A stretch of DNA of 64,000 nucleotides from Eledone cirrhosa (Eukaryota). The stretch lies in NCBI GenBank assembly GCA_964016885.1, contig OZ024747.1:35030001-35094000 (forward strand), read 5' to 3'. Below are positions 3,821-51,955 of the stretch, in pieces (position 1 is the first letter of the stretch; every line of letters begins with the position of its first letter). The translations under genes and the position numbers were made by a program. The notes beneath the pieces were generated by a model. The model did no database searches, was not told the DNA's origin, and worked only from the letters and a program-made list of their open reading frames with translations.

Positions 3821-5314
3821 TCTCCTTATAATATATAACCAGCAATTTCTCTGTCTGTCTGTCCGACGCGTAGAGAGAGAGTGAGAGTGAAAGAAAGAGA
3901 CATACTACAAGAGGGGGATAGAGGGAGGGAGAGAGAGAGACGCTGGAAGAGGGGAAGGAAAGCTATGTCTTGCTGTCTGCATTACGATACATATATATAT
4001 GCACATACACACTGAGCGCGTCATAATGACGTAATGCAGACAGCCAGCCATACAGACAGATATTAAAAGGGCGCAAAGTTATATCTATGTATCTATCTAA
4101 AAAGAAAGACTAAGAATTATATAGAGAGAACGCTAAATCGCCTAATGCGGTCCCTAGGGCATTGACAATTTCAAATACTTTTTGCTCAAAACCCTCACAG
4201 GACCATAAGTATTACATGTCTAAAGTTTGAAAACAATCGGTTAGATGGTTCTCAAGTTTTAGTGAGCTGACAGACAGACATTCTATGTTTTAGATATATA
4301 GACGAGCAGGAAACCACACGCGGGCGGTTTTCTGCTAGTCTATATATCTAAAACAGAGAATGTCTGTCTGTCAGCTCACTAAAACTTGAGAACCATCTAA
4401 CCGATTGTTTTCAAACGTTAGACATGTAATACTTATGGTCCTGTGAGTGTTTTGAGCAAAAATTATTTAAAATTTTCAATGCCCTAGGGACCGCATTAGG
4501 CGATTTAGCGTTCTCTCTATATCATTCTTAGTCTTTCTTTTTGATAGATACATAGATATAACGTTGCGCCCTTATAATATCTGTCTGTATGTCTGGCTGT
4601 CTGCATTACGTCATTATGCCGCGCTCGGCGCGATTCCCTCGGCCTCAGTGACCAAAGTCAGTGGAGAGGGGAAGGTAATGTTTCTGTAGCACGTGTTTTA
4701 GCGTCTATTCACTTTCTCTCTCTCTCCCTCTCTCCTTCCCGCTATCCTCCTCTCGTAGTATGTCTCTTTCTTTCACTCTCACTCTCTCTCTACGCACGTG
4801 TTTCCACTGTCGGACAGACAGACAGAGAAATTGCTGGTTATATATATATATATAAGTAGACTAGCAGAAAACCGCCCCTCGTGTGGTTTTCTGCTAGTCT
4901 ATATATCTAAAACAGAGAATGTCTGTTTGTCTGTCTGACTCCATAAACTTCGAGAACCACCCAACTGATTGTTTTCAAACTTTACACATAAAATACGTAT
5001 GGTCCTGTGAGTGTTTTGAGCAAAGAAAATGCTATATGTTCAATTCCCTAGGGACTTCATTAGGCGATTTAGGGATCTCTCTCTATAATTCTTAGTCTTT
5101 CTTTTTAGATAGATACATAGCTACGACCTCGGGCCCTTATAATATCTGTCTGTATGGCTGTGTCTGCATTACGACCTTATGGCACTATATGTATATATAT
5201 AGTGTGTAACGTTTTTCGAAATATTTACTTCTGCGTTCACAGATTGATTTTTTTTAGTTTCAGAAGATCCAGTTAAGGGTGAAAGCAGCGATTCTTTGCT
5301 TAAACTGTAATCTG

Positions 5315-11076: not shown

Positions 11077-11245
11077 AGAGAAGTAAGCGCAACAATAGGC
11101 AAACAATCTGGTTCTTTCCTCCCTTCTCACTCAATGTTAAAACCATTGTAGGAAAAAAAATGTCTAGCCCTCTTAGATAGACACTTTCCCATGTCATATC
11201 TTTAACCGACATAAAGTTAAACTAGGATAATCCAGCGCTAAGAAC

Positions 11246-11743
11246 ATGAAGGCCCACATAACCAGCACCCATAGGAGCAACACCCCACCAGGGTGCTCTT
11301 GCCGTAAGCCCGAAGCTTTCCCCCTTCAACAGCAATGCAACACACCAGCTGTAATTTATGAAGCTGTGGTCACTTCCAACCAACCAAACGAACCACAGGA
11401 GGTCAAATCCTATGTGGGCATGGCGGAGGGCCGATTTAAGGAACGTTTCCTGAATCATCAGTCTACCTTCAGGTACCCGGACAGACGTTCAGCCACGAAA
11501 ATCGCGAGCCACGTATGGTCCCTCAAGGACTCAAGTATAGACTACTCCATTCAATGGAAACCTATCACTAAGTCCAAGCCATACGCAAGGAGAAATCCGA
11601 CGTGTGGCTTATGTATTGACGAACAAATAACTATACTAAAGAGATTACGCAATAGTGATTGCCTAAAGACGAGAAATGAATTTTTCACACGTTGTCCACA
11701 CGTCGCCAAAGACCTATTGCATAACTACAAGGCTCCGGACTGA
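11246..11743 (+). CDS. GIY-YIG endonuclease C-terminus of a PLE (fragment)
   Basis: CSC..AVIY..YVGMAEGRFKERFLNH..CGLCIDE..RNEFFTRCPH. Confidence 0.85.
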   Translation: MKAHITSTHRSNTPPGCSCRKPEAFPLQQQCNTPAVIYEAVVTSNQPNEPQEVKSYVGMAEGRFKERFLNHQSTFRYPDRRSATKIASHVWSLKDSSIDYSIQWKPITKSKPYARRNPTCGLCIDEQITILKRLRNSDCLKTRNEFFTRCPHVAKDLLHNYKAPD

Positions 11744-11906
11744 TTCCTTGTAATTTTATTTCCAACTAAAAACTTTTTCGGACTTTCGCAGTTATCTCCT
11801 TTACACCTCTCGCACGCATTCTAGTATTGCCTGTGTGAAATGACCGGGTTTCTGCGCATGCACATTTGTACGGTTGTATTTCCTGTTCCTATAACCATGC
11901 CCATTA

Positions 11907-11944
11907 CGAGCTGAGGATCCGCTAAGTTGAAATAATTGTTCTTG
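11907..11944 (+). ncRNA. Minimal type I HHR in PLE 3' region
   Basis: cgag-CTGAGGA-tccgctaagtt-GAAA-taattg-TT-cttg. Confidence 0.65.
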
Positions 11945-11968
11945 GTATGGTGAAGTAACTGTGTAACC

Positions 11969-12087
<119 letters not shown>

Positions 12088-14015
12088 CATTCAAAGTGAA
12101 TTGCATTACGTCGAGTGCTCTCCATAATATTACATCGAGGTTGACCATATGGAATGACCAGTTCTATCCAGTGGTGAACCAACAAACCTAAATAAATATT
12201 GCTCCAGGAAATGTCGAGCGCTTTCATATGTAATAATGAACAGGGGCCCTGATACCACTGTACAGCTATCGCCAGCATGGGACTAACAACACACCATTCT
12301 GATTTTGGCTGCAATAAGCGTTGTCTACCGCTCACCCGGAACATGGATTGCTGCCTCCCTGTCGTGAATATTCAGACTCCGTCAGACCTCATATGTTCTT
12401 CAAAAAATCAACACATTCTCCTACATCCTGTATTGTATTGACTGAATTCTCTATCCTATATTTCAGGGCTTTTGGGATTCACATTGAAAATTAAGAGTCG
12501 AACATACACTAGGTATCACCTGATACCACTCCAACTCTTCCATCCTCTATATCTATATGTATAACCTTGTATTCTCCAACCGTGCTATATATTGTCCATT
12601 TAATGCACCTTCATCTGTATTTTATTACTTCCGTATTTTGATTCCTTCGATATGTTCTTATATACTTCCATTTTACTCCCTCCATTACCACCCTAGGTAT
12701 GACTGCATTTTATTTATGTATTTTACTTGTTTTTATTTATGTATTTATTTGTTCGCTTTACTCTCCTTATATACGTATCCTTGTATTCATTAACACACGA
12801 CCCTATAATACTACTCTCTGTACTCTTTACATCTGTTTATCTTTATTCACTCCCCCTACCCACCCAAGATTCACACTACATATAACCTGGACTAACTGGG
12901 GACTAAATGTAGTCTATTTGCACATTTCATCATATTTTGCCACTTTCAACTCCACATCACGGGTGTGAATAACTAATAATCGTTTGGTACACGTGATGAT
13001 CCAACGCATGTGGCGGCTTTCCCGACTGCACGCCAGGCGCTCGGGTCGATCAGCCTTCCCAGAGTGCTTGGAAAACTAAATTTCCCCTTCTTTCGTTAAA
13101 CGAAAATACTCGGAACGGGTGTTTCGCCCTCGGGCTCTGTCAGCTGTCAGACTTGGATGGAACCCACAGCGCTACCCGTTATTGGCCGCCAAACAGTGCG
13201 TATAAATTCTAGGCTTAATCATAACTTTTAATATTCATGCCTCCTTCCCTCCTTCTACTAGCACCTAACTAAATCCCACACCAGTGTGAATAGTTAGTAA
13301 TCGTTTGGTACATACGATGGCAAGCCGACGGTGGCGGACTTCTCGCTAACACACTCGACGCGTAAGACAGTTAACATTCTTGGAGTGCTCGGAAAATAAA
13401 TTTCCATTTCTTTCGCTAGTCGATAATACTCGGAATGGCTAACAGGCCGTTGGGTCCCAGGTTGGCCGGGGGTCCGCTATGTCTCTGGTTATTGACCGCT
13501 AAGCATGGGCTTAATCTTTACTCTATATTCTACAATGCCTCCTTCTGTAAATTCTTTAGCTAAATCTCCCAACTATAATCCTAAACCTTATTTTTAATTT
13601 CATCTTAAATGGCATCTTCTGACTCTAAACATGAATTTAACGTGTCTAATTGTTAATTGTAATTTCTCTCCATACATTATATCATGCAGACGCCCACTAT
13701 ATATTACTATATATAGCTTTGTTAACGATATATGTTCTTTGAAAAAATATTTTTCGCGGCACTTTCTAGCACGCATGACCAGCTTGATTGTAATCTGATC
13801 TCACCACTTGCCTATGTCTGTGACGGGGTGGTAGTAGTACACTGTAAGCCTACGCTCCTTCACGAGATGGACATAGATAGGATTAATTATCACCACTAGA
13901 GGGCGGACGACCAGGGTAGAAGCTGCTAAATATTCGGTCGCCCTCATGTCTCTGATTTTCAAGCCCATGGATTTTGTCTATTATATTCCTTTGTTATATT
14001 TCGAATACCTGATGA
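12088..14015 (+). mobile_element. Family C non-coding ~2 kb element with two tandem structured motifs, ending in an interrupted HHR
   Basis: Colinear homology with 42341-44035. Its start matches 30710-30787. Ends atacCTGATGA (14009-14015). Confidence 0.7.
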
Positions 14016-14337
14016 TTTCTATACTTTAATTTATATTTATACTCGGAAGGATTCTAGAGTGCTTAACATTATTTGTGACTAATCCCGGTCTTTTTAAAAA
14101 AGAAAACCGCGATAATATTGCTATTTTGCTGAACTCCTTACACTTGTAGAGTTTTTTTCGGAATGTTTTTTTACTGTTGTTTCATGCAAACAGACATTCG
14201 TCTATTCCATTCTGACGTCACCAGCCATGTCTCTCCATGTGCCTTTATTTTTCATAATTACGTACGAGGTGAACTAGCCTGTCTTTAAATTCCCTTTTTG
14301 GCATATTCTACAGTGGTTTTAGCGTTATCGTGTTTGA

Positions 14338-14417
14338 GCTCTGCTGATGAACGGTTCCAACCGTGACCATCCCCACCGAAAGTTTCGCGAAATAGTCTTT
14401 TTAAGACTATAGAGAGC
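14338..14417 (+). ncRNA. HHR-like motif with long helix III
   Basis: gctctg-CTGATGA-acggttccaaccgt..-GAAA-tagtctt ttt aagacta-TA-gagagc. Confidence 0.55.
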
Positions 14418-26573: not shown

Positions 26574-27187
26574 TATATATGTGTGTATATATAGCGGCGA
26601 TGAATTAGTTTTGCGAGGTTTTTTATATGAAATCGTGTGTCGAAACAGATATTGTTATATTTGGGGAGGGTCATATTTGCGTAATATTGCCAGAATTAAT
26701 AACAGAACACACTCACTGTTTGGTTGGTTTTCGCTTCTCGCTGTCTTTTATATATATATATCTGCGATCTAACTTACTCGGTCCTCAATGTTGCCATTGA
26801 CTGACCGGCGGTCAAAAATAATACAGATACAATATAGACACAAACACATATATGTAGTTTACATAATTTACATAAATCTTTCGTTGCACATCTGCAACAT
26901 CGTCAGTGGTGTTATATTCATTGTTCCTCCTGTTGTGTTGTATGTCTACGCCATTTTTTTTTTTTTGTTCAGTCTGTCTATATATTTATTTATTTATTTG
27001 CTTGTTTGTTTATCTTATTTTATGTTGTCTTCTTTGCGCATGCGTTTGCGTGTGTGTATAGTGTTATGTGTGATGTGTGACTAGTGTGTATAGTGTTGTG
27101 TCTGCTGGGTGACTAGTGTGTGTTTATGTGCTTGTGTATGTATTTATTTATCTTATTTTATTTAATTTTATTTACTTATTTATACTT

Positions 27188-27779
27188 CTCTTAGGTCAGT
27201 GTTGTTTGTTTGGGTGTTGTTGTTGTTCCACTCATTCTTTCTGTTTAGCTTTGGTCTTCTAATTTCTATTTCACTGGCCTCTCTGATTTGCCTATCTGCT
27301 GGGTCATTCCTATGTTTAGATATTATTCTAATTTCTATGTTGTATATGTTACCGTCATGTTGTTGTCTAGCATGTTCGTATAGTACTGACCCGTTTTTTT
27401 CGTCCTTTTAGTTCCCCCCAGTGTTGGTCTATCCTTTCACCTATGCTACGAGCTGTCTCACCTATGTATGTTGTTGTCATGTTTCTGCAAGTACCCTCTG
27501 TACATCTTATGCTATAGACTACGTTTCTAGTTTTACAGTTTATCCGGGGGTTCACCTTACAAATGATACATTTCCTATTGGTACAGTGGGTTTTCTTAAA
27601 AGGGTAGGTTTTGCTGATCAGGGATTTTATGGTGGTTCCTGGCTTTTCTACCACCTTTATTTTTAAGTGGGTCTTTCTCAGGGCCTTTCTACACTGGTTA
27701 GCTAATTTCCCTCCAGGGGTGGCGTCCACAAACATGACACTCTGTTATCTCTGGTTGTCGTACCATGATGTGACCTTCC
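27188..27779 (-). pseudogene. PLE linker and GIY-YIG endonuclease (frameshifted)
   Basis: MFVDATPGGKLA..CTNRKCIIC..NVVYSIRC..YIGETARSIGER. Confidence 0.9.
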
Positions 27780-28973
27780 CTATCTTATTCTAGCCCTATC
27801 TAAGCTATTCCATGATTTGCTCCTGTATAGTGGGCAAATTCCTTTCATGTCCAGTTCTATGAGGGTCTTATACTTTTCCATGGCTCCTTCGTATACTCTG
27901 ACTCTGTCTCTTTGGTTGTAGCCAGAGAACTGTCTGCGGTTGATGAAGTGTTGGATGTGTCCTTCCATTTCTGTTGGGTCGCACATGCTGGACACATTCT
28001 TCATCACTCGTACCAAATCTGCGATCAGAATATTAAACTTAGCACTACTGGACATTGCTGAGTTTTTGAGTATCAGGTATTTGGAGGCCATGGGTTTAGC
28101 ATAGTGTGAGTGGAGAATTTGGGCTCTCTCGTCTATAGTGTTAATCCAGAGTTCTGTGTCTAATACAGGTAGTCTATTGTTAGGGTGTTTGGAAGGGAAG
28201 TCTATAGTTACAGTTATACTCTGGTGTATGGAATTAGCTATCTGCTGGATGCTTTCCATCGTGCTACGTTCTAAATCAAACTTGTTAGTGCTCTCTAGTG
28301 GGGGTGTTCTTATAACTATATTGATATCGTCTACATAACGAGAGTACATGATGAGGTCTATGGAGCTTTCATTAAGGAGATCTTTAAGTCTCCTTTCCCA
28401 CCATACCATGAAAAGTTTGGCAACATCACCAGCTATGCTGACGCCGATGGCTGCTCCCTCATTTTGGGTGTAGATTTTCTCATTGAACTTAAATATGTGG
28501 CCCTTTAGGGTAGTTTTGATACTAGCCCCTATTGCATGTGCGACCATTTTTCTTACCTGATCAGTGTTTTGGGGGGTCCGTATAGCTTTGGTCCACCCAA
28601 TCCACCTTCCTATGGGAGTCTTTTTAGCCATTGAGGTTATGGTGGGGGGTCTACCTCTTATAGGTCTACTAGGGCAGAAACATCTAAGGTCATTGCTGTC
28701 TAGGTAGTCAGTGTCGTAGGTAAGTCTAAGTAGGAGGCCCAGTTCGTCTGTGTCGACGTCGCAGAACTCCACCTCACTCTCAATGATCATCTCCACACAT
28801 CTTTTCACAGCAAAATCAATGTTAATGGATGGGTACAGTGACACCACATCCATGCTGCCTATTATGCAGTTGGATAGGCTCCTGTTTTTGTTGCACTCAC
28901 TGATTCTGCTGAGGAGGTCCTCTGTACTTTCACATACATCTGGGGACATCTTGATTATGGGGCGTATAACCAT
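27780..28973 (-). CDS. PLE reverse transcriptase (397-aa open segment of a disrupted ORF)
   Basis: IGSMDVVSLYPSI, QNEGAAIGVSIAG, YSRYVDD, LPVLDTELW, HYAKPMAS. Confidence 0.92.
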   Translation of the reverse strand: MVIRPIIKMSPDVCESTEDLLSRISECNKNRSLSNCIIGSMDVVSLYPSINIDFAVKRCVEMIIESEVEFCDVDTDELGLLLRLTYDTDYLDSNDLRCFCPSRPIRGRPPTITSMAKKTPIGRWIGWTKAIRTPQNTDQVRKMVAHAIGASIKTTLKGHIFKFNEKIYTQNEGAAIGVSIAGDVAKLFMVWWERRLKDLLNESSIDLIMYSRYVDDINIVIRTPPLESTNKFDLERSTMESIQQIANSIHQSITVTIDFPSKHPNNRLPVLDTELWINTIDERAQILHSHYAKPMASKYLILKNSAMSSSAKFNILIADLVRVMKNVSSMCDPTEMEGHIQHFINRRQFSGYNQRDRVRVYEGAMEKYKTLIELDMKGICPLYRSKSWNSLDRARIR

Positions 28974-30152
28974 TGAGAGGAAGTAGGAGATCCTGTAGTT
29001 GCTAGCTATATTAGCTCCGCATACGGGTCTTGTTGGTGGTCCTGTTGTCGGGTCGTCGACTGTCTTGTGGGCTTTGCGGAGCCCATACAGGGTGGTATGC
29101 CATTGTTAGACGCCTGGAAGTTGTTGGCAGTGCGGCTGCTTGGCTTTAGGATGTCAGTCCACATCATCATGTGAGCGTTGAGGATTTTTTCTCTCCCATC
29201 GTGTGTTAGTTGTGCAACTTCGCTCGTGTTGGTGATGTGGGGTTGCATTGCCTCGATGTAGTTCGGCATGCTATCTATTGACGTACAGAGGGTACTTGCA
29301 GATGTACAGAGGGTACTTGCAGAAACATGACAACAACATACATAGGTGAGACAGCTCGTAGCATAGGTGAAAGGATAGACCAACACTGGGGGGAACTAAA
29401 AGGACGAAAAAACGGGTCAGTACTATACGAACATGCTAGACAACAACATGACGGTAACATAGACAACATAGAAATTAGAATAATATCTAAACATAGGAAT
29501 GACCCAGCAGATAGGCAAATCAGAGAGGCCAGTGAAATAGAAATTAGAAGACCAAAGCTAAACAGAAAGAATGAGTGGAACAACAACAACACCCAAACAA
29601 ACAATACTGACCTAAGAGAAGTATAAATAAGTAAATACAATTAAATAAAATAAGATAAATAAATACATACACAAGCACATAAACACACACTAGTCACTCA
29701 GCAGACACAACACTATACACACTAGTCACACATCACACATAACACTATACACACACGCAAACGCATGCGCAAAGAAGACAAAATAAAATAAGATAAACAA
29801 ACAAGCAAATAAATAAATAAATATATAGACAGACTGAACAAAAAAAAAAAATGGCGTAGACATACAACACAACAGGAGGAACAATGAATATAACACCACT
29901 GACGACGTTGCAGATGTGCAACGAAAGATTTATGTAAATTATGTAAACTACATATATGTGTTTGTGTCTATATTGTATCTGTATTATTTTTGACCGCCGG
30001 TCAGTCAATGGCAACATTGAGGACCGAGTAAGTTAGATCGCAGATATATATATATAAAAGACAGCGAGAAGCGAAAACCAACCAAACAGTGAGTGTGTTC
30101 TGTTATTAATTCTGGCAATATTACGCAAATATGACCCTCCCCAAATATAACA

Positions 30153-30221
<69 letters not shown>

Positions 30222-30528: not shown

Positions 30529-30570
<42 letters not shown>

Positions 30571-30574
<4 letters not shown>

Positions 30575-30787
30575 CCCGGTCACTGAAATGTGCATAGTGT
30601 TTGTAATAAACTTTTAAGAGATTTAAGCAGTCCAGCTTCCTGTCATTTTACTCAATAATAATTAACTATGTTCTCGTACGACCAACAAGATTCAACATAA
30701 ACGAAGATGGGTGAGTTGCATTACGTCGGGTGCTTTTCCATGATTACATTACGGTTGACTCTATGGGATGACCAGTTCTATCCAGTG
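30571..30787 (+). mobile_element. Family C fragment joining the HHR 3' half to the unit start
   Basis: gtcactGAAAtgtgcaTAgtgt..cctgtcattt matches 44055-44128, then ttgcattacgtcg..ccagttctatccagtggtgaac matches 12097-12193. Confidence 0.7.
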
Positions 30788-30825
30788 GTGAACAAACAAA
30801 TCTAAATGTGTATACATATATATAT

Positions 30826-40249: not shown

Positions 40250-42340
40250 AATAAATTTTGAAGACATAAATCCAAAGAGGGCTCGATAAGGATAAATATA
40301 TATCAAATATATAAGAACCGTAGAGCAAATATTTATTAAAATAACAGATTAAAGTTTAAGCAAAGAATCGCTGCTTTCACCCTTAACGGGATCTTCTGAA
40401 ACTAACAAAGTCAATCTGTAAACGCAGCAGTGGATATTTCAAAAAACGTTGCAACCGGAGGAAGACAGGAAGTCGATACTTTGGTTCGTGGAAACGTTCC
40501 CTGGCAAAGAACGGGAAAAAACGAATATAATACGTCATTAATAGGAGCGGTGAAAAACAATTATGCGCAAAGACAGAACCACGTTTATGGTATAAAAGAG
40601 GTCGTAGACTAATGTTCTCTTAGGTGGTTCATAGAGACGTTCTCTGGCAATGAACGAAAAATACGAAGATAATACGTCATATGTGGAGCGTGGAGAACAA
40701 TTGCACGCAAAGACAAAACCACGTAAAAGGTATAGCAGAAGTCGTAGACTAAAATTCTAACTAGGAGACCGAATGAATCTCTGCTTCAGAGTTAAGAACA
40801 AAGTAAATTAATACAATACAGAAGTAATATAAATTAAATAAATACATACACGCATACAAATACGTACATACACAAGCATACGCGAAAACACTTACCATAG
40901 GTATACAAAACCACGCACATATAAATATGTGTCTGTGTGTATGCGTGTATACAAATAAATAAATAATTAAATAAACGTATATAAATAAATAAATACGTAT
41001 ATAACAAGCGCACACACATACCTACATGTAAATACACAAATGTTCGGAGACGTAAGTCAACCAAAACATGAAGTACACATATACACACACCCTACATACG
41101 TACAAACCTGCACACTCACACAGACGCAAAACTCCCGTATACACATAACCAAACCATATGTACCAGAATGTATAAAATTATACGCAATAACATATACGAT
41201 CAAATATACGTACGAGAAGGTATACGCACCTTCACAAAACATACAGGCAATATATACTTACCTATGCAAATAAGTAATGGTATAAACGAAACATATACTT
41301 AGCTACCACATCAAGACGTAAAATATACACGTATAGATCGTACTATCCGTTAGGGTATAACGTGGGGCTGTAATGCAGGAAATTTTTGTGCAATTTATGT
41401 TTACAAGCCGAAATTGCCTCAGACTTTTTGTTTAAGATGTGGTCTGTGGTGTAGAGTATTTCCAGGGCCTCAGCGGCGCAGAGGTCACATGGTCTTTTAT
41501 TTACGTTATACGATCTAGCCCCAGCTAGGATCTCCCAGTGTTACTTATATTGGGTGTGGTTGTCTTTTAGACTCCAGATATAAGCTGAAAGTGACGTCAT
41601 ATTCCCTCTTAGAGGGTAACGAAAAGAATGGGTATGCATGTAAAGACGCTGCTTGAATCTATTGGTGGTTAACCCTATGTAGGCCCTACGGGACGTGGGT
41701 GTTTCAACCTTACATTTGTAGACAATGTTACTAGAGAGGCATTTCCCGGATAGCGGGCAATCAGCCCGATTCCTACAATTACAGGTAGTACTAACTACAG
41801 GGTTGCACGTGTTCCTACGGCTAGGTAGTTTAGCTAAATTTGAAGCTGTGATGTTATGTGCAAGGTTAGGAGTCGTAGAGTAAGACATTTTAATAGTATT
41901 TCTATTAAAAGTTTTACTATATTTATGTGTAGGGGGAAAATGCTTCGTAATAAGGGAAAGAAAGATCTTAGATAATGGTGTGGCCACCTCCATAGTATAT
42001 GGTGGGTCATACCAACAAATGCGACGGGATCTATTTCTTCTAGGTCTATTTTCGTACTCTGTATATGCTACCTTATCGACAAATCCACTCCGAGCAAGAG
42101 CTTCATTGTAATAAGTGGAATGGTCGTTGAAAATATGCTCGTTAGTAGATAGACGGGAAAGCCTCAACGAAACGTTTCTTACCAGGTTCTTGGTTATACT
42201 GGCAGGATGGTTGGAATGCTTACTTATGTAATTAAGCGTATCATTCGGCTTTCTATACGGGTAATACCACACATTCAATAAATTGAGGGTAACGTCGAGG
42301 TAATTAACGACCGAGAGATTAGCCTCAACCTGTATTCTAC
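40250..42340 (-). mobile_element. 5'-truncated PLE (Naiad-like): RT thumb and GIY-YIG (41345-42340), 3' UTR, HHR at 40353-40403
   Basis: VNYLDVTL, YPYRKPN, SNHP, WYDPP, CNCRNRADCPLSGKC, YIGLTTNRFKQR; CDLCAAE follows the stop. Confidence 0.92.
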
Positions 42341-44128
42341 TTCTATGTATCCATGTATTTCTACTCCTCCTACTGAGACTTTTGCTCACTTCTACCCATT
42401 AGCACACGACACTAGAATGTCTCCCCCTGAGAACAAAAATAAATATTACCCGACTATATCCCTTACTCTACATACCACTAGGATAACTTATAGAACATCT
42501 ACATAATACAATTAACGTTTCTTCATAAAAGACTCTCTTTAACTAAACCCCGCAACCCAAAACCTTAAAACAGTTTTTTAAATGTTTAATTTTCAATTTT
42601 CTATTTGTTCAATTCTCAATCTTCTTACTCTTTAATTTTATGATGTTATTCTGAATTCTTTCAACTTCATCCTATAAATGTAAACAATATTTTAACGTTC
42701 CAACTTTCTGTCAGACTGTTGGATTGGTTTTCATGGCGGCGGGACCGGCCCCCTGGCGCATAGGCCTACCTTGAGTGCTTGGAAAAATAAATTTCCCCTT
42801 CTTTCGGTAAATGAAACTACTCGGAGTGGCTTGATTCACCCCAGGGGCCCGGCATGCAGCCGGTTTTTTAACCGCCATATAGTACCTTTAAATTACAGAT
42901 CAAATCAGAACTATTAGATATATCACGCCTCCCTTTACTTAAGCAAATCCCCCTCCTGGGTAAAGGAATATTACTGGTTTTGTACAAAAATGGCCTAACG
43001 ATGCGGGCTGACTTCCTGCTGGCGCACCTGAAGCCTGTTATACATTCCTAGAGTGCTCGTTAAAATCGATGTCCATATCTTTCGCTAGGCGATATCACTC
43101 GGAGTGATGGGCTGCTCAAGCTTGTAGTCGCCGCATGCTGTTTGACGGCTAAACAAAGACATAATCTTTACTCTATAATAAAATTTAAGTGTCTTCATAA
43201 AAAACTCTTTCTTTGCTTAAACCTCACAACCTTAAACATGTTAAACTATTTAACTTTAAATTTTCTAATTTCTTTAATTTTATAATGTTAATATTAAATA
43301 TTAATTTTTTAACTTCATCCTATAAGTCTAAACAAAAATGTAACGTTCCAATCTTCTGCTCACACATTGACCCCCACTATATTGACCTCTGCTAAGATAC
43401 GGGTCCCTTTGAAAATATTTTGTTCGCGCCATTCCTGGCCTGACTATAGTCTGACATTAATATCGACCTTCCTCCCTCTTTCTTTCTATCTTTCTTCTTG
43501 TAGCCATCAACCCTGACTTTCTGCTTCTTCCTTTTCTGCCTTCTCTTCTCCCTTATTTCTGTTTTTCTCCTTGTGGCATGATATTAACGCTGACTTATCT
43601 TACTTCCCCTTTTTCTTTGCCTATATTTGACCGGTAGTAGTTGTTAAGATACGTGTCCCATAGAATAAAAAGAATTTCGCGACATTCCCGGCCTGACTGT
43701 AATACCGACCTTTCCTCCTCTTTCTTTCTGTCTTTCTTCTTATAGCTGACATTAACCTGGCTTCTCTTCTTCTTCCTTCCCCCTTCTTCTCTCTTCTTTC
43801 TTTCTTTCTTTCTTTTTTTTTTTGTGGCATGATATTAACGCTAACTTATGTTCCTATCCCTTTCTGTTTTCCTTTATTTGACCGGTAGTAGCACACTATA
43901 AGCTTTAGCCACGTCACTCCAGGGCGACCGGCAAATGTAGAAGATGCTGGATGGCGGTCGTCCTCGGGTCTCTGATTTTCAGCCCCATGGATTTTATCTA
44001 TTACATTCGCTTATTATATTTCGGATACCTGATGATATCACCGGATTCATACGTAACCCCGTCATTGAAATGATCATAGTATAATAAACCTTTCAAGGAT
44101 TTACACAAATCCAACCTCCTGTCATTTC
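42341..44128 (+). mobile_element. Family C non-coding element (second copy) ending in a complete HHR
   Basis: Homologous to ~12700-14015. Internal ~250-bp tandem duplication at 43394-43890. Confidence 0.7.
44025..44082 (+). ncRNA. Type I HHR of family C
   Basis: atac-CTGATGA-(31 nt)-GAAA-tgatca-TA-gtat; palindromic helix III. Confidence 0.7.
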
Positions 44129-47463: not shown

Positions 47464-47498
47464 AAAGAATGGAGGTGTAACACACGAGTTGTGATATA

Positions 47499-47877
47499 TT
47501 AGTAAAAGGAAAAGAAAATACTAACACAGTTTTCCCAGTGAAAAATAGTTTAATTAGGAATAAGTAAAAATTAGTAATAAGTACTAGTTAGTAATCAGTT
47601 TTAGTTTTAAGTTATTACCGGTTGCGCATTTCTAATGCTTTTCAAAAATAATTGTGAGATAGAGCGCCCGTGATGTTTTCTCTAATCAGATTAGAGCAAA
47701 CATCAGGGGCGCTCTATCTCAAAATTATTTTTGAAAAGCATTAGAAATGCGCAACCGGTAAAAACTTAAACCTAAAACTGATTACTAACTAGTACTTATT
47801 ACTAATTTTTACTTATTCCTAATTAAACTATTTTTCAGTGGGAACAATTAGTCAGCCTTTTCTTTTCCTTTTACTAA
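47499..47877. repeat. 379-bp palindrome (fold-back element)
   Basis: Centre ctctaatc-a-gattagag at 47688; lies between (TA)n tracts. Confidence 0.9.
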
Positions 47878-47883
47878 CATTTA

Positions 47884-48419: not shown

Positions 48420-51268
48420 ACCTTTCCAAGAGCAAATAGTTTTGTCCATAATGCCAAAACAGAATGCAGGGAGACTTTGCTTCTGCTGTCCGCACTGCAA
48501 AGGTTATCGCTGGCCACATTAACCCAAATCTCTGTGCTGCTTCCAGGGTAAAGTGAAACTCCCTCAACTTCCTCCTCTCCACCAAATATACTGAAATATT
48601 TCGATATGACTCAAGCAGGAAATTATTTTATAACAATGTACTTGCCTTAGCATCAATTGGTTGCAAAGAGAATAAAGCACCAGGATTTATTCCCACATTA
48701 ATATTCCGCGTAAGATTTGACATATTATTGGATCACTATTTCCAAGCAATGCTTCACCCAAGATTGCGCAGCTTTACTTCTATGATACAGATCACGAGCT
48801 TCAGAATCGCTTGCATCATGCTAATTTAGATGCTTCTGTCCTGCAGGACCTCCGAGCAGACTTACACTACTGCAACACCTATATAAGAAGCTTCAAGGCA
48901 ATCATTGAAATGCCAGTCTCTGAAAATGTGAATATTGTCCTACATGCTGACAAAGTAAAACCCACTGATTTTCATTGTCGCACATATACTTTTCCCATTG
49001 TATCTGAGATTGCTGTTATTCAACCTGATACAGCATTAGGTTTCTTGAATGTCATCATCCATAAAAGAGATGGTGGTATTCAGAGGATTCATCAGTTGCA
49101 CCATTCATATGATCCACTGCATTATGTGCTACTGTCTCCTTGGGGGAATGATGGGTTTCAGGTTGGTTTGTAAAGGATTGACAACAACCACACACGCACA
49201 CCAATTTATTTCTACTGTTATCGGTTTCAGGTTAGGTAAGGTTACTGTAACATAATCATGAAGAGCAGCGGCTGATTCAGCAATATGCTGTAGATGCCCA
49301 GGCAAAAATAGAACATTGTCGCCTCAAATGGTCCCGCAACAATCAAACCATGATACGAGCTGAACAGTATGAGAGTTTGTATGGTGCTGTGGCTGAAGGA
49401 GATTCAGTAAATGCAGGCCGGAGATTTGTTCTTCCTCCTTCAATCTATGGTTCCCCTCACTTCTACAGTGAGTGCTTTCACAATTCGATGACTGTGGTTC
49501 GACACATGGGAAAGCCCTCTTATTTCATCACAGTAACCACTAAACCTAACTGGGATGACATAAAAACTAGTTTGATGAAGAACCTAGAGACCGTCTCGAT
49601 ATTTATACAAGATCAAGTATGGCAGCCACATGGATGACATACTGAAAAAGAAAATGTCCTAGGAAAGGCTGTGGCTCATCCTGCTACAATAGAGTGGCAG
49701 AAACGAGGCCTCACTCATGCTCATATTCTGCTGATAATGGCTGAAGATAGCAAGCCCAAAACTTCTGATCCCATTGACCCGGTAGTCTACTGTGAGATTC
49801 CTGATAAAGAGACCAATCCAATTCTGCATAAGATCAACACATCCTGCAACATTCATGGCCCCTGCGGACAAGCTAATATGATGTGCTCACGTATGGAAGG
49901 GCTAGGACAACAACGCGATTGCTCAAAAGGTTATCCTAAGGCATTCAGACAAACCACATTTGTTGCCGAAAATTCCTTTCCGGAGTTTAGAAGGAGGGAT
50001 AGACAGTATGGTGGTCACACCCATACAATCCACCTTAAAGGTCAATAATTTACTGTTGATAATCGTTGGATTGTTCCATACAAACCTTTCCTCATATTGA
50101 GACAGCCGATGACTAAGTTGACGGAATATTTTCAACTGAATATTAGAGACCCACCGGCACAAAACATATTGTTTATTCCTTACTATTTCATTTGGACAAA
50201 CACAAATTCGTAAAGAAAAAAAAGAGACATATGGATGGTGATCAACAATTTATGAGTGAATCTCTTGGACGCATTCCAACAGTATCTCTCAGTAGATATC
50301 AATCTGAATTATATTATCCCAGTTTGATCCTATATCACAAGATTGGGTCAACTTCATACAAATATTTGAGGACAATTGAAGGTGTTGAATTTCCAACACT
50401 CCAAGAAGCATGCAGGAAACTTTGTTTGTTGGATGAAGATGGAGAAAAAGACAAAACTATGAAAGAGGACTCATCCATTTAGCTTGGACCTCAGGTGCGA
50501 GAAATCTTCTGCACCATTTTATTGTACAGCATGCCAAATGACCCTCTGAAGTTCTGGGAGAAATGGAAGAATTGCCTTGCAGAGGATATCATGCAATAAC
50601 GTATTGAGCAGGTCATGCAAACCTTGCAGATTGTTCTACAGAAGATCCAACAAAGACTTCAACATGATGGCTTGGACATTCATGCCAACTATGGACTTGC
50701 TCGGCCATATCGAACTATTGTTGCCATACCAGAAATCAACAGGGTTCTTATGGCAGAAACTGATTTCAATAAACACCAACTGCACGCAAACATAAATGAA
50801 CTTCCGACAATATTGAATCCTGAGCAACTAGTTATTTTTCTGAAAGTAATCACCTCTGTAAATGAACATGAAGGCAGAATTTTCTGCTTGAATGCAAGTG
50901 CAGTCGCAGGAAAGACCTATGTCATAAACATCCTATTGGATTACCTCCGATCTAAAAAGAATTGCACTTGCTACTGCCGTATCTGAAATAGCAGCCACTT
51001 TGCTTCACAAAGGTAGAACTCTTCATTCCAAGTGCAAGATTCCTCTCAATGTGACTGCTGAATCAACTTGCTTCTTCACAAAAAGGGATGCCACGTGTAA
51101 ACTTATGCAGCAAGCTGAACTGCTAATCATTGATGAGATAGGTATGGGATATAAGCAAATCTTTGAAAGCCTTGACAGGAGCTTCAAAGATGTTCGAGAT
51201 TGCAAAAGGCTATTTGGTGGTCTAACAGTATTACTATCTGGTGACTGGAAGCAAAATCTTCCAGTTGG
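48420..51268 (+). pseudogene. Helitron RepHel pseudogene (Rep HUH and PIF1-like helicase)
   Basis: AQLYFYD, YDPLHYVLL, YFITVT, IEWQKRGLTHAHILL, DNRWIVPY, AGKTY, LLIIDE, FGGLTVLLSGDWKQNLPV; many stops and frameshifts. Confidence 0.95.
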
Positions 51269-51955
51269 TATGAGTGACACCACTCGCGAGATCGCTGCAT
51301 CTGTTTTTGATTTGCGCGATCTCGTTCGTGATGTATCCTCTTTTGGCACTGTTAGGGAGGGCGGACTTGTAGTGAACGAATAGGTCCCTGCAGGCTGCCT
51401 TTCGGTAGAAGTTGCAGTGGATCCTTCCCTGTTCCGTGATGTTGATTCGGAAGTCGAGGAGGGCAAGTGACCTGTCTTCGTTGGAGTGTTCAACACTGAA
51501 CTCAATGTTCTCGTCCGTGTTGTTGAACGTCTCATAGATTCTGTTCGCCGTGTCTTGGGAAGGTGTGAGGATGAGAATATCGTCCACGTACCTTGAGAAA
51601 AAGGCTACGGCGTTGGGGTGGCAGGCGTTGAGTGCCTTGCGTTCGAGGTTGTCCATGTAAGAGATCGCTAGCACACCTGATAGGCTTGATCCCATGGGCA
51701 ATACCGAGGTTTGTTGGTATATTTGGTCAAGGAATCCGAAGTAGGTGTTGTCGACGACGATGGATAGGAGTTGGTGGATGTCAGTGGTGGTGAGCCCGAA
51801 GCAGTGTAGGTCGGTGGATTGGACGCGTTCCATTAGTATATTGACGGCCGGGAGTGCCGGGACCGAGGTGTAGAGAGCGACTACATCAAGGCTGAAGGCA
51901 TATCTGTTATTCCTTCTGGTGTCGGGATCCATTTGATGCAGGCGCTTCAACACCT
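51269..51955 (-). pseudogene. PLE reverse transcriptase core fragment
   Basis: FSLDVVALYTSV, LPMGSSLSG, FSRYVDDIL, LALLD, FYRK..HYKSALP. Confidence 0.9.

Follow-up and report, generated by a model that had tools for sequence, protein, structure and literature searches.

Two copies of a non-coding, hammerhead-bearing element lie in the window

The window (the whole 64,000-nucleotide stretch of Eledone cirrhosa DNA that was analyzed) contains two copies of a non-coding element, A and B, each with two modules that carry a common junction core. A further fragment of the same element and a piece of a Penelope-like element (PLE) of the Hydra clade lie in the same stretch. These features, with the evidence for each, are as follows.

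12096..14019, plus strand: non-coding PLE-type element copy of subfamily A (unit about 2.15 kb), stopping inside its own hammerhead; aligned over its whole length with complete copies, L010 among them, at 86%
12982..13194, plus strand: module A1 (copy 1), predicted long hairpin capped by the junction; family fold z -4.2, model match 12978-13235 at 172 bits
13056..13115, plus strand: junction core 1, with UUCC/GGAA, GAGUG/UACUC, the GGAAA/UUUCC hairpin and the small hairpin; pattern, family alignment and predicted fold
13303..13504, plus strand: module A2 (copy 2), part of a 300-nt internal duplication; alignment, family fold and model match
13377..13435, plus strand: junction core 2; the A2 majority sequence prefers an alternative fold (P5 probability 0.09)
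14005..14019, plus strand: hammerhead, 5' portion only, with the stem I strand and CUGAUGA, where copy A breaks off; sequence and alignment
30570..30807, plus strand: short fragment comprising 3' end and tail, from another subfamily of the element; 73-75% identity to the A and B ends
41544..42330, minus strand: Hydra-clade PLE RT-thumb/GIY-YIG fragment, neighbor of element B; CxCX5C linker as described in section 11 of PMC8557442
42332..44134, plus strand: 5'-truncated subfamily B copy (unit about 2.6 kb); module order common to 29 other loci, the neighboring ORF in none
42734..42877, plus strand: module B1 (copy 3), short type, closed by UGGCGG/CCGCCA; fold and model match
42767..42826, plus strand: junction core 3; pattern, family alignment and predicted fold
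42977..43154, plus strand: module B2 (copy 4); model match, weakest fold (family z -0.6)
43045..43104, plus strand: junction core 4, whose GGAAA/TTTCC stem carries three private substitutions; relatives and same-species contigs
44025..44082, plus strand: minimal type I hammerhead AUAC-CUGAUGA-stem II-GAAA-UGAUCA-UA^GUAU, with palindromic stem III and putative cleavage at the caret; sequence and genomic pattern

Elements A (motif copies 1 and 2) and B (copies 3 and 4) are approximately 65% alike. Full units range from 2.0 to 2.7 kb, as exemplified by L010 (subfamily A, about 2.15 kb), L058 (subfamily B, about 2.6 kb), and L280 (the old subfamily H, 1.96 kb), and each terminates in a minimal type I hammerhead whose stem III is palindromic. 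The hammerhead pattern matched 5,972 sites in the 3.0-Gb, microsatellite-rich genome and none in the control; the hammerheads of PLEs are described as usually minimal (PMC6155905). No ATG-initiated ORF longer than 88 amino acids was present in any of five units (longest, 59 to 88 amino acids), and tblastn with the PLE proteins of the window gave no match inside the elements. The motif is not a remnant of coding sequence, a possibility that the initial annotation had raised against its own proposal.

Copies of the element are 5' truncated, often with an inverted 5' piece and sometimes in partial tandem (pLTR), and they end in (TA)n. An optional tail gives two end sites 140 to 150 nt apart: for subfamily A, 18 of 35 ends fell at 0 and 11 at +150, and for subfamily B, 20 of 46 fell at 0 and 18 at +140. 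This tail is longer than the 30 to 40 bp given for PLEs, whose hallmarks include the hammerhead, pLTR or tandem copies, 5' truncation, and (TA)n targets (PMC8557442). By this anatomy, the A and B units belong to a long, non-autonomous derivative of PLEs. One PLE studied in vitro has two RT start sites (PMC11167929), and the two end sites seen here match them. The motif itself is internal, approximately 0.7 to 1.2 kb from the insertion ends.

Several other features were observed in the window. A conserved hairpin of the GAGGGCGACCG..CGGTCGCCCTC type, found with different stem sequences in subfamilies A, B, F, H, and I, stands 60 to 110 nt upstream of the hammerhead (43921-43968 and 13899-13944), and an isolated hammerhead-like core, CTGATGA..GAAA, lies outside A and B at 14344-14394 (plus strand). 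A PLE with long inverted ends occupies 26645-30160, with a 441-amino-acid RT frame (27783-29105, minus strand) and hammerhead-like cores at 26906 (minus strand) and 29899 (plus strand). Near-perfect fold-back inverted repeats of 170 to 220 nt, with spacers of 0 to 1 nt, are located at 736-996, 4099-4542, and 47496-47880, the first with a hammerhead-like core in each arm. Fragments at 48700-51400 and 2449-2829 resemble Helitron Rep/helicase, a provisional label. Finally, the palindromic word GAGYRCTY recurs in PLE tails and 5' untranslated regions (UTRs), at 12113 and 35123 in the window and upstream of Hydra ORFs in L018, L067, L091, and L195; it also opens the junction core (GAGTGCTY) and is possibly a shared recognition word.

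The four junction copies and their modules

The initial annotation had reported four diverged copies of a three-way-junction motif, and all four are present, with the GAGTG of the cores starting at 13062, 13383, 42773, and 43051. A 13-mer search allowing up to 2 mismatches returned 5 matches, against 1.58 expected, and 4 of these were the core copies. Each copy forms the tip of a long predicted hairpin of approximately 145 to 215 nt, and the motif sits in a GC-rich island within the AT-rich element. Some details of the earlier description had to be modified. The CATTCC..GGARTG flank applies to copy 4 and to the family of copy 2, but copy 1 reads CCTTCC/GGAACG and copy 3 reads CCTACC/GGAGTG. 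TGGCGG..CCGCCA, described as the enclosing stem, is the outer closing only in short modules of the copy 3 type. In the long modules (copies 1, 2, and 4) the predicted rod instead extends outward, is closed by GTTTGG/CCAAAC and GATGRYC/GGTTATT, and starts approximately 25 to 30 nt upstream of the earlier start. The decay of the GGAAA/TTTCC stem in copy 4 is real but private: relatives mostly have GGAAA..TTTCC, and in contigs of a same-species DNA run positions 43060, 43061, and 43071 carry the family letter at full depth.

The motif occurs as a pair in each of the two window elements, but pairing is optional, since many F loci, and the one full H unit scanned, have a single module. In other subfamily F loci (L158-L186), the module repeats with a 513-nt period, a duplication independent of the 300-nt one in A and B. 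The AAUAAA in the P6 loop was considered as a poly(A) signal, an idea ruled out by its loss in B2, C2, and I2.

The core is a high-copy repeat conserved across subfamilies

A composite core pattern matched exactly at 867 genomic sites, compared with none for the reversed control; the core is therefore a high-copy repeat and not a chance match. A pattern without the common GGAAAA form added 41 matches, with none in its control. DNA searches yielded 1,000 and 1,414 candidates, and the 40 scored from each had 92-96% identity. No single-copy source gene was seen among the pattern matches examined. Metagenome and viral scans gave one match each, neither with a flanking core on inspection and neither scored by the model. 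The core is present in at least nine subfamilies (A, A', B, B', C, D/E, F, G, H, and I), the distant ones being drawn from searches by DNA and by pattern. Subfamilies G, E, and H were found by way of the hammerhead; among the representatives compared, G, E, and one B-like sequence were obtained by hammerhead search and not by core patterns. The lineage is long-lived, with thousands of 3' ends.

Conservation along the element was measured in 30-nt bins of 13 representatives against the A majority sequence, to which H gave no alignment. The two cores averaged 94% and 91% identity and the hammerhead 92-96%, with 83-96% in the terminal 260 nt and 51-89% in the other internal bins. The core is among the best-conserved parts of the element, as conserved as the hammerhead, and sequence comparison indicates that the surrounding arms turn over while the core is kept as tightly as the ribozyme.

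The initial annotation had called the motif unknown, and this description stands: Rfam 15 covariance models gave no match at the gathering threshold in the window, and neither the 14 nor the 30 loose matches included one that overlapped the motif. No description of the motif was found in the openly readable literature, and four motif words were all absent from the PLE supplement of PMC8557442. Repbase or Dfam may already list the repeat as such.

Comparative evidence for a plus-strand RNA structure

The raw window copies fold only modestly (z -2.4, -2.0, -1.1, and -0.5). Majority sequences gave rods capped by the junction in A1 (z -4.2), B1 (-3.1), F1 (-2.6), and D (-3.7), whereas A2 reached z -3.0 with an alternative apex and the B2 module folded no better than shuffles (z -0.6); the values for H1, H2, and I2 were -3.5, -4.1, and -1.8. 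P5 probability was at least 0.8 in 12 of 22 subfamily sequences. The plus strand, which the initial annotation had favored from G-U pairs, had the lower z in 15 of 19 and in 3 of 3 cases. The arms agreed with this, with plus-strand and minus-strand energies of -42.5 and -17.4 kcal/mol in I2, -47.5 and -29.0 in H1, and -51.7 and -30.3 in H2.

Covariation was examined in 15 natural copies. Two-sided change was observed at 18 of the 59 pairs of the rod, amounting to 41 cells versus 21.6 in shuffled alignments, with none of 500 shuffles as high; the structure scored had been derived from these very copies, and kinship among them is not modeled by the shuffle. In the same copies, slid controls were 34-47% paired versus 82% in the drawn structure. 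Two-sided change was absent from all 13 core pairs, P5 and P6 included. Against a tree-aware null, a first set of 10 sequences, which had a misfolded root, reached p<0.05 in 1 of 8 measures, and a second set of 12 families gave p 0.003 to 0.05 in 8 of 8. The excess of G-U over A-C cells was 61 to 43 (p 0.095).

Pairing between the arms was also assessed by energy. The arm-arm duplex beat shuffled arms in 8 of 9 subfamilies (p<=0.022), the B2 arm being the exception (p 0.19), and A-type 5' arms paired equally well with foreign 3' arms. The I2 arms could not be aligned to those of five other subfamilies (p>=0.085 in 10 of 10 tests), yet they form a near-unbroken, G-U-rich helix. The small hairpin occurs in three sequences, UUUCG/CGAAA, UACGG/CCGUA, and UCUC(G)/(U)GAGA, around a near-invariant CG-N-UA. 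By a longest-stem statistic it was unremarkable (null fraction 0.25 to 0.99); an energy null, applied as a second try after that statistic, gave p 0.005 in H1, 0.006 in H2, 0.038 in I2, and 0.12 in B2, with H1 and H2 being kin. Taken together, comparison and folding support a conserved, structured RNA domain on the plus strand of a hammerhead-bearing PLE-type element, and we consider it very probable that the modeled plus-strand structure is real.

Hydra-clade PLEs as the candidate enzyme donor

The minus-strand ORF beside element B belongs to a high-copy Hydra-clade family with 713-amino-acid frames, and its Atlas neighbors are animal PLE-like clusters. None of 29 other B loci holds the ORF and none of 35 other ORF loci holds a motif module; hence, the ORF is not part of B. 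The same counts rule out the motif as the 3' UTR of this ORF, joined to it by a 5' inversion. Identification of the ORF as Naiad was also ruled out, as the EN is C-terminal with Hydra diagnostics, and a Hydra ORF upstream of L109 is incidental (1 of 30 F loci). Members of the neighboring family (window 41100-42330, minus strand, and L081-L096) include many intact 713-amino-acid frames at 93-95% identity, have the hammerhead core CAGAAGA rather than CUGANGA, and carry in the 3' UTR their own tandem pair of approximately 140-nt modules. Directly upstream of element A (11231-11970, plus strand) lies a different Hydra family's GIY-YIG end, which has a compact hammerhead at 11911-11940.

A Hydra family at L283 (811-5080) has an unusually long 3' UTR of about 1.3 kb and an insertion between RT and EN, and its hammerhead and tail resemble those of the non-coding element. 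It has hammerheads at both ends and ends at TA; CTGATGAGGTCA is common to it and subfamily H, and GTTGAGTGCTC, a tail word, to it and subfamily A. Its alignments to the element are short (<200 nt, 59-76%). Neither profile nor unfiltered model search detected a core in the UTR of this family, no motif turned up in the autonomous copies of Hydra-clade PLEs that were examined, and no autonomous parent with a matching 3' end was found among the Hydra families compared. Because the end architecture is common to the element and one Hydra family, the Hydra clade is the likely enzyme donor.

The junction resembles telomerase CR4/5 only in part

The initial annotation had also likened the topology to CR4/5 of telomerase RNA, which consists of P5-P6-P6.1 with a five-base loop whose U and G are invariant, a P6 stem bearing a pyrimidine bulge, and a short linker of purines (PMC3950677). 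The likeness holds for the predicted Y-shaped junction, in which two short hairpins stand on a long stem, and for the U at loop position 2. It does not extend to loop size, the position-4 G or purine, the linker, the P6 bulge, or the template. The small-hairpin loops are GUAAA, CUAGA, UAAA, UAUA, AUA, or GAUAU, that is, 3 to 6 nt in which the U is kept and the G is not; position 4 is A, G, or U across subfamilies. P6 is an unbroken stem of 5 to 6 bp, and the linker is 5 to 7 nt of mostly pyrimidines. In telomerase RNA, CR4/5 has the telomeric template and a pseudoknot upstream of it, and it binds TERT and stimulates its activity. None of seven telomeric template words, which may not represent the host's repeat, matched in four of five units, and unit I has one 8-mer template word, downstream of the motif. 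With no Rfam match in addition, the motif is not a member of CR4/5. Protostome telomerase RNAs are reported to lack canonical CR4/5 (PMC8480181), which would exclude the host's telomerase RNA as the source if the host is a protostome.

Possible roles of the junction

Retention of a 60-nt core in a non-coding lineage suggests that source RNAs need it. We tentatively favor the reading that the motif is the conserved tip of a predicted long hairpin in a protein-free, hammerhead-bearing PLE, where it may dock a host protein that shields the RNA or delivers it to a borrowed RT of the Hydra clade. Source copies would be transcribed through tandem ends, the transcripts would possibly be cut by the hammerhead, and the RNA would be copied in trans from two start sites approximately 140 to 150 nt apart into (TA)n. 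Selection on source copies would maintain the junction, much as the SRP9/14-binding domain is maintained in Alu. Contact points would then be provided by the unpaired bases that never vary (CU following GAGUG, UA of the small loop, and the bulge U), and the rod would be a scaffold of free sequence.

Alternatively, the junction could bind the PLE RT directly, as a CR4/5-like activating or recruiting domain separate from the template. The gross topology is that of P5-P6-P6.1 on a long stem, and telomerase RNA domains work in trans (PMC3950677); PLE RTs are the sister group of TERT (PMC8557442), and the U that stands two bases past the conserved CG never varies (14 of 14 rows). However, loop size and the position-4 G are not kept, and none of the Hydra copies scanned yielded the motif. 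Moreover, the protein-binding region proposed for the PLE studied in vitro lies within 172 nt around the RT start sites (PMC11167929), whereas the motif is at least 0.7 kb from the ends. We regard direct binding as unlikely, and a host-protein dock is preferred to it because the core lies within the element, is doubled only in some units, sits far from the region where the RT starts, and was not seen in the donors examined. A more specific form, in which PLE RTs recognize a separate Y-shaped RNA domain working like CR4/5 and the element owes its survival to bearing such a domain on a long hairpin, is quite doubtful. If true, the element would amount to a parasite constructed on the plan of telomerase RNA, and it would directly model how TERT adopted a stand-alone RNA.

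Capture of an unrecognized host small RNA, such as a single H/ACA-type hairpin kept for assembling a ribonucleoprotein, has precedents in snoRTE and AluACA. H/ACA RNAs have an ACA box immediately following a hairpin that holds a guide pocket. In the element, ACA or AUA, sometimes ANANNA, follows CCGCY in most subfamilies, and the module duplicates as a discrete 300-nt unit. The trinucleotide is nevertheless absent from A2, which has GCA, and from I2, which is without the flank; in the long modules it overlaps the closing stem. As no Rfam match covers the motif at gathering or loose thresholds and no single-copy source gene emerged from the pattern matches examined, we consider this origin distinctly unlikely.

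Conservation of the core in primary sequence, with no two-sided change, and its position in a GC-rich island of an AT-rich element are the marks expected if it acted as DNA, either as an internal promoter or as a factor-binding cluster with inverted GGAAA/TTTCC sites, the hairpin being incidental. The two-sided changes in the rod, the G-U-rich pairing of plus-strand arms, and the wholesale replacement of arms with pairing kept make this improbable. It is more improbable still that the junction has no present function and owes its conservation to chance, ascertainment, or gene conversion among copies: several subfamilies were indeed found with core patterns, and some structure tests were null (the first tree-aware set, G-U versus A-C, and the longest stem), but G, E, and H, reached through the hammerhead, keep the core, and the I2 arms were replaced with pairing kept. 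Least probable is a self-cleaving or ligating ribozyme of an undescribed class, which the invariant unpaired bases around a three-way junction might suggest, for the element already has a hammerhead, copy ends cluster near that hammerhead and not at the motif, and no Rfam ribozyme matches.

The kept internal domain, here read as a candidate dock for a host protein, bears on the question of how protein-free PLE derivatives capture an RT. The 60-nt core, with its natural variants, offers a bait for finding the protein involved, and the same bait could show whether a telomerase-related RT uses a separate RNA domain.

Comparison with known systems

The Alu SRP9/14 domain resembles the junction in being a conserved, sometimes duplicated internal domain that is absent from the enzyme donor. 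The same can be said of SINE bodies, of which conserved examples of unknown origin are described (PMC5786205). The element differs from Alu and SINEs in having no tRNA head, no 7SL match, and PLE-type rather than LINE-type ends. ARAGORN found no tRNA genes in 5 of 5 loci and Rfam no tRNA match, by searches that can miss decayed heads.

With the Hydra-clade PLEs described in section 11 of PMC8557442, the element has in common (TA)n targets, a hammerhead, pLTRs, and a tail; those PLEs encode RT-EN, and no junction was found in those of their copies that were scanned. The non-autonomous Chlamys elements, MRC1 among them, are likewise PLE-type, with pLTRs and head-to-tail copies (PMC8557442). In general, however, they resemble an autonomous family at the 3' end, whereas here only the end architecture resembles one Hydra family.

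Classical animal non-LTR retrozymes are derived from PLE ends (bioRxiv 10.64898/2026.07.22.740005), and the element resembles them in being non-coding, in its type I hammerhead and tandem arrangement, and in its inferred mobilization by PLEs (PMC7229834; bioRxiv 10.64898/2026.07.22.740005). Classical retrozymes are expressed, as monomers in linear and circular form. The conserved internal RNA domain is seen here and is not mentioned for retrozymes in the relevant passages of those two sources. Finally, retrozymes are tandem units of 150 to 450 bp (PMC7229834), whereas the element described here measures 2.0 to 2.7 kb and occurs mostly as 5'-truncated or inverted dispersed copies with a minimal hammerhead.
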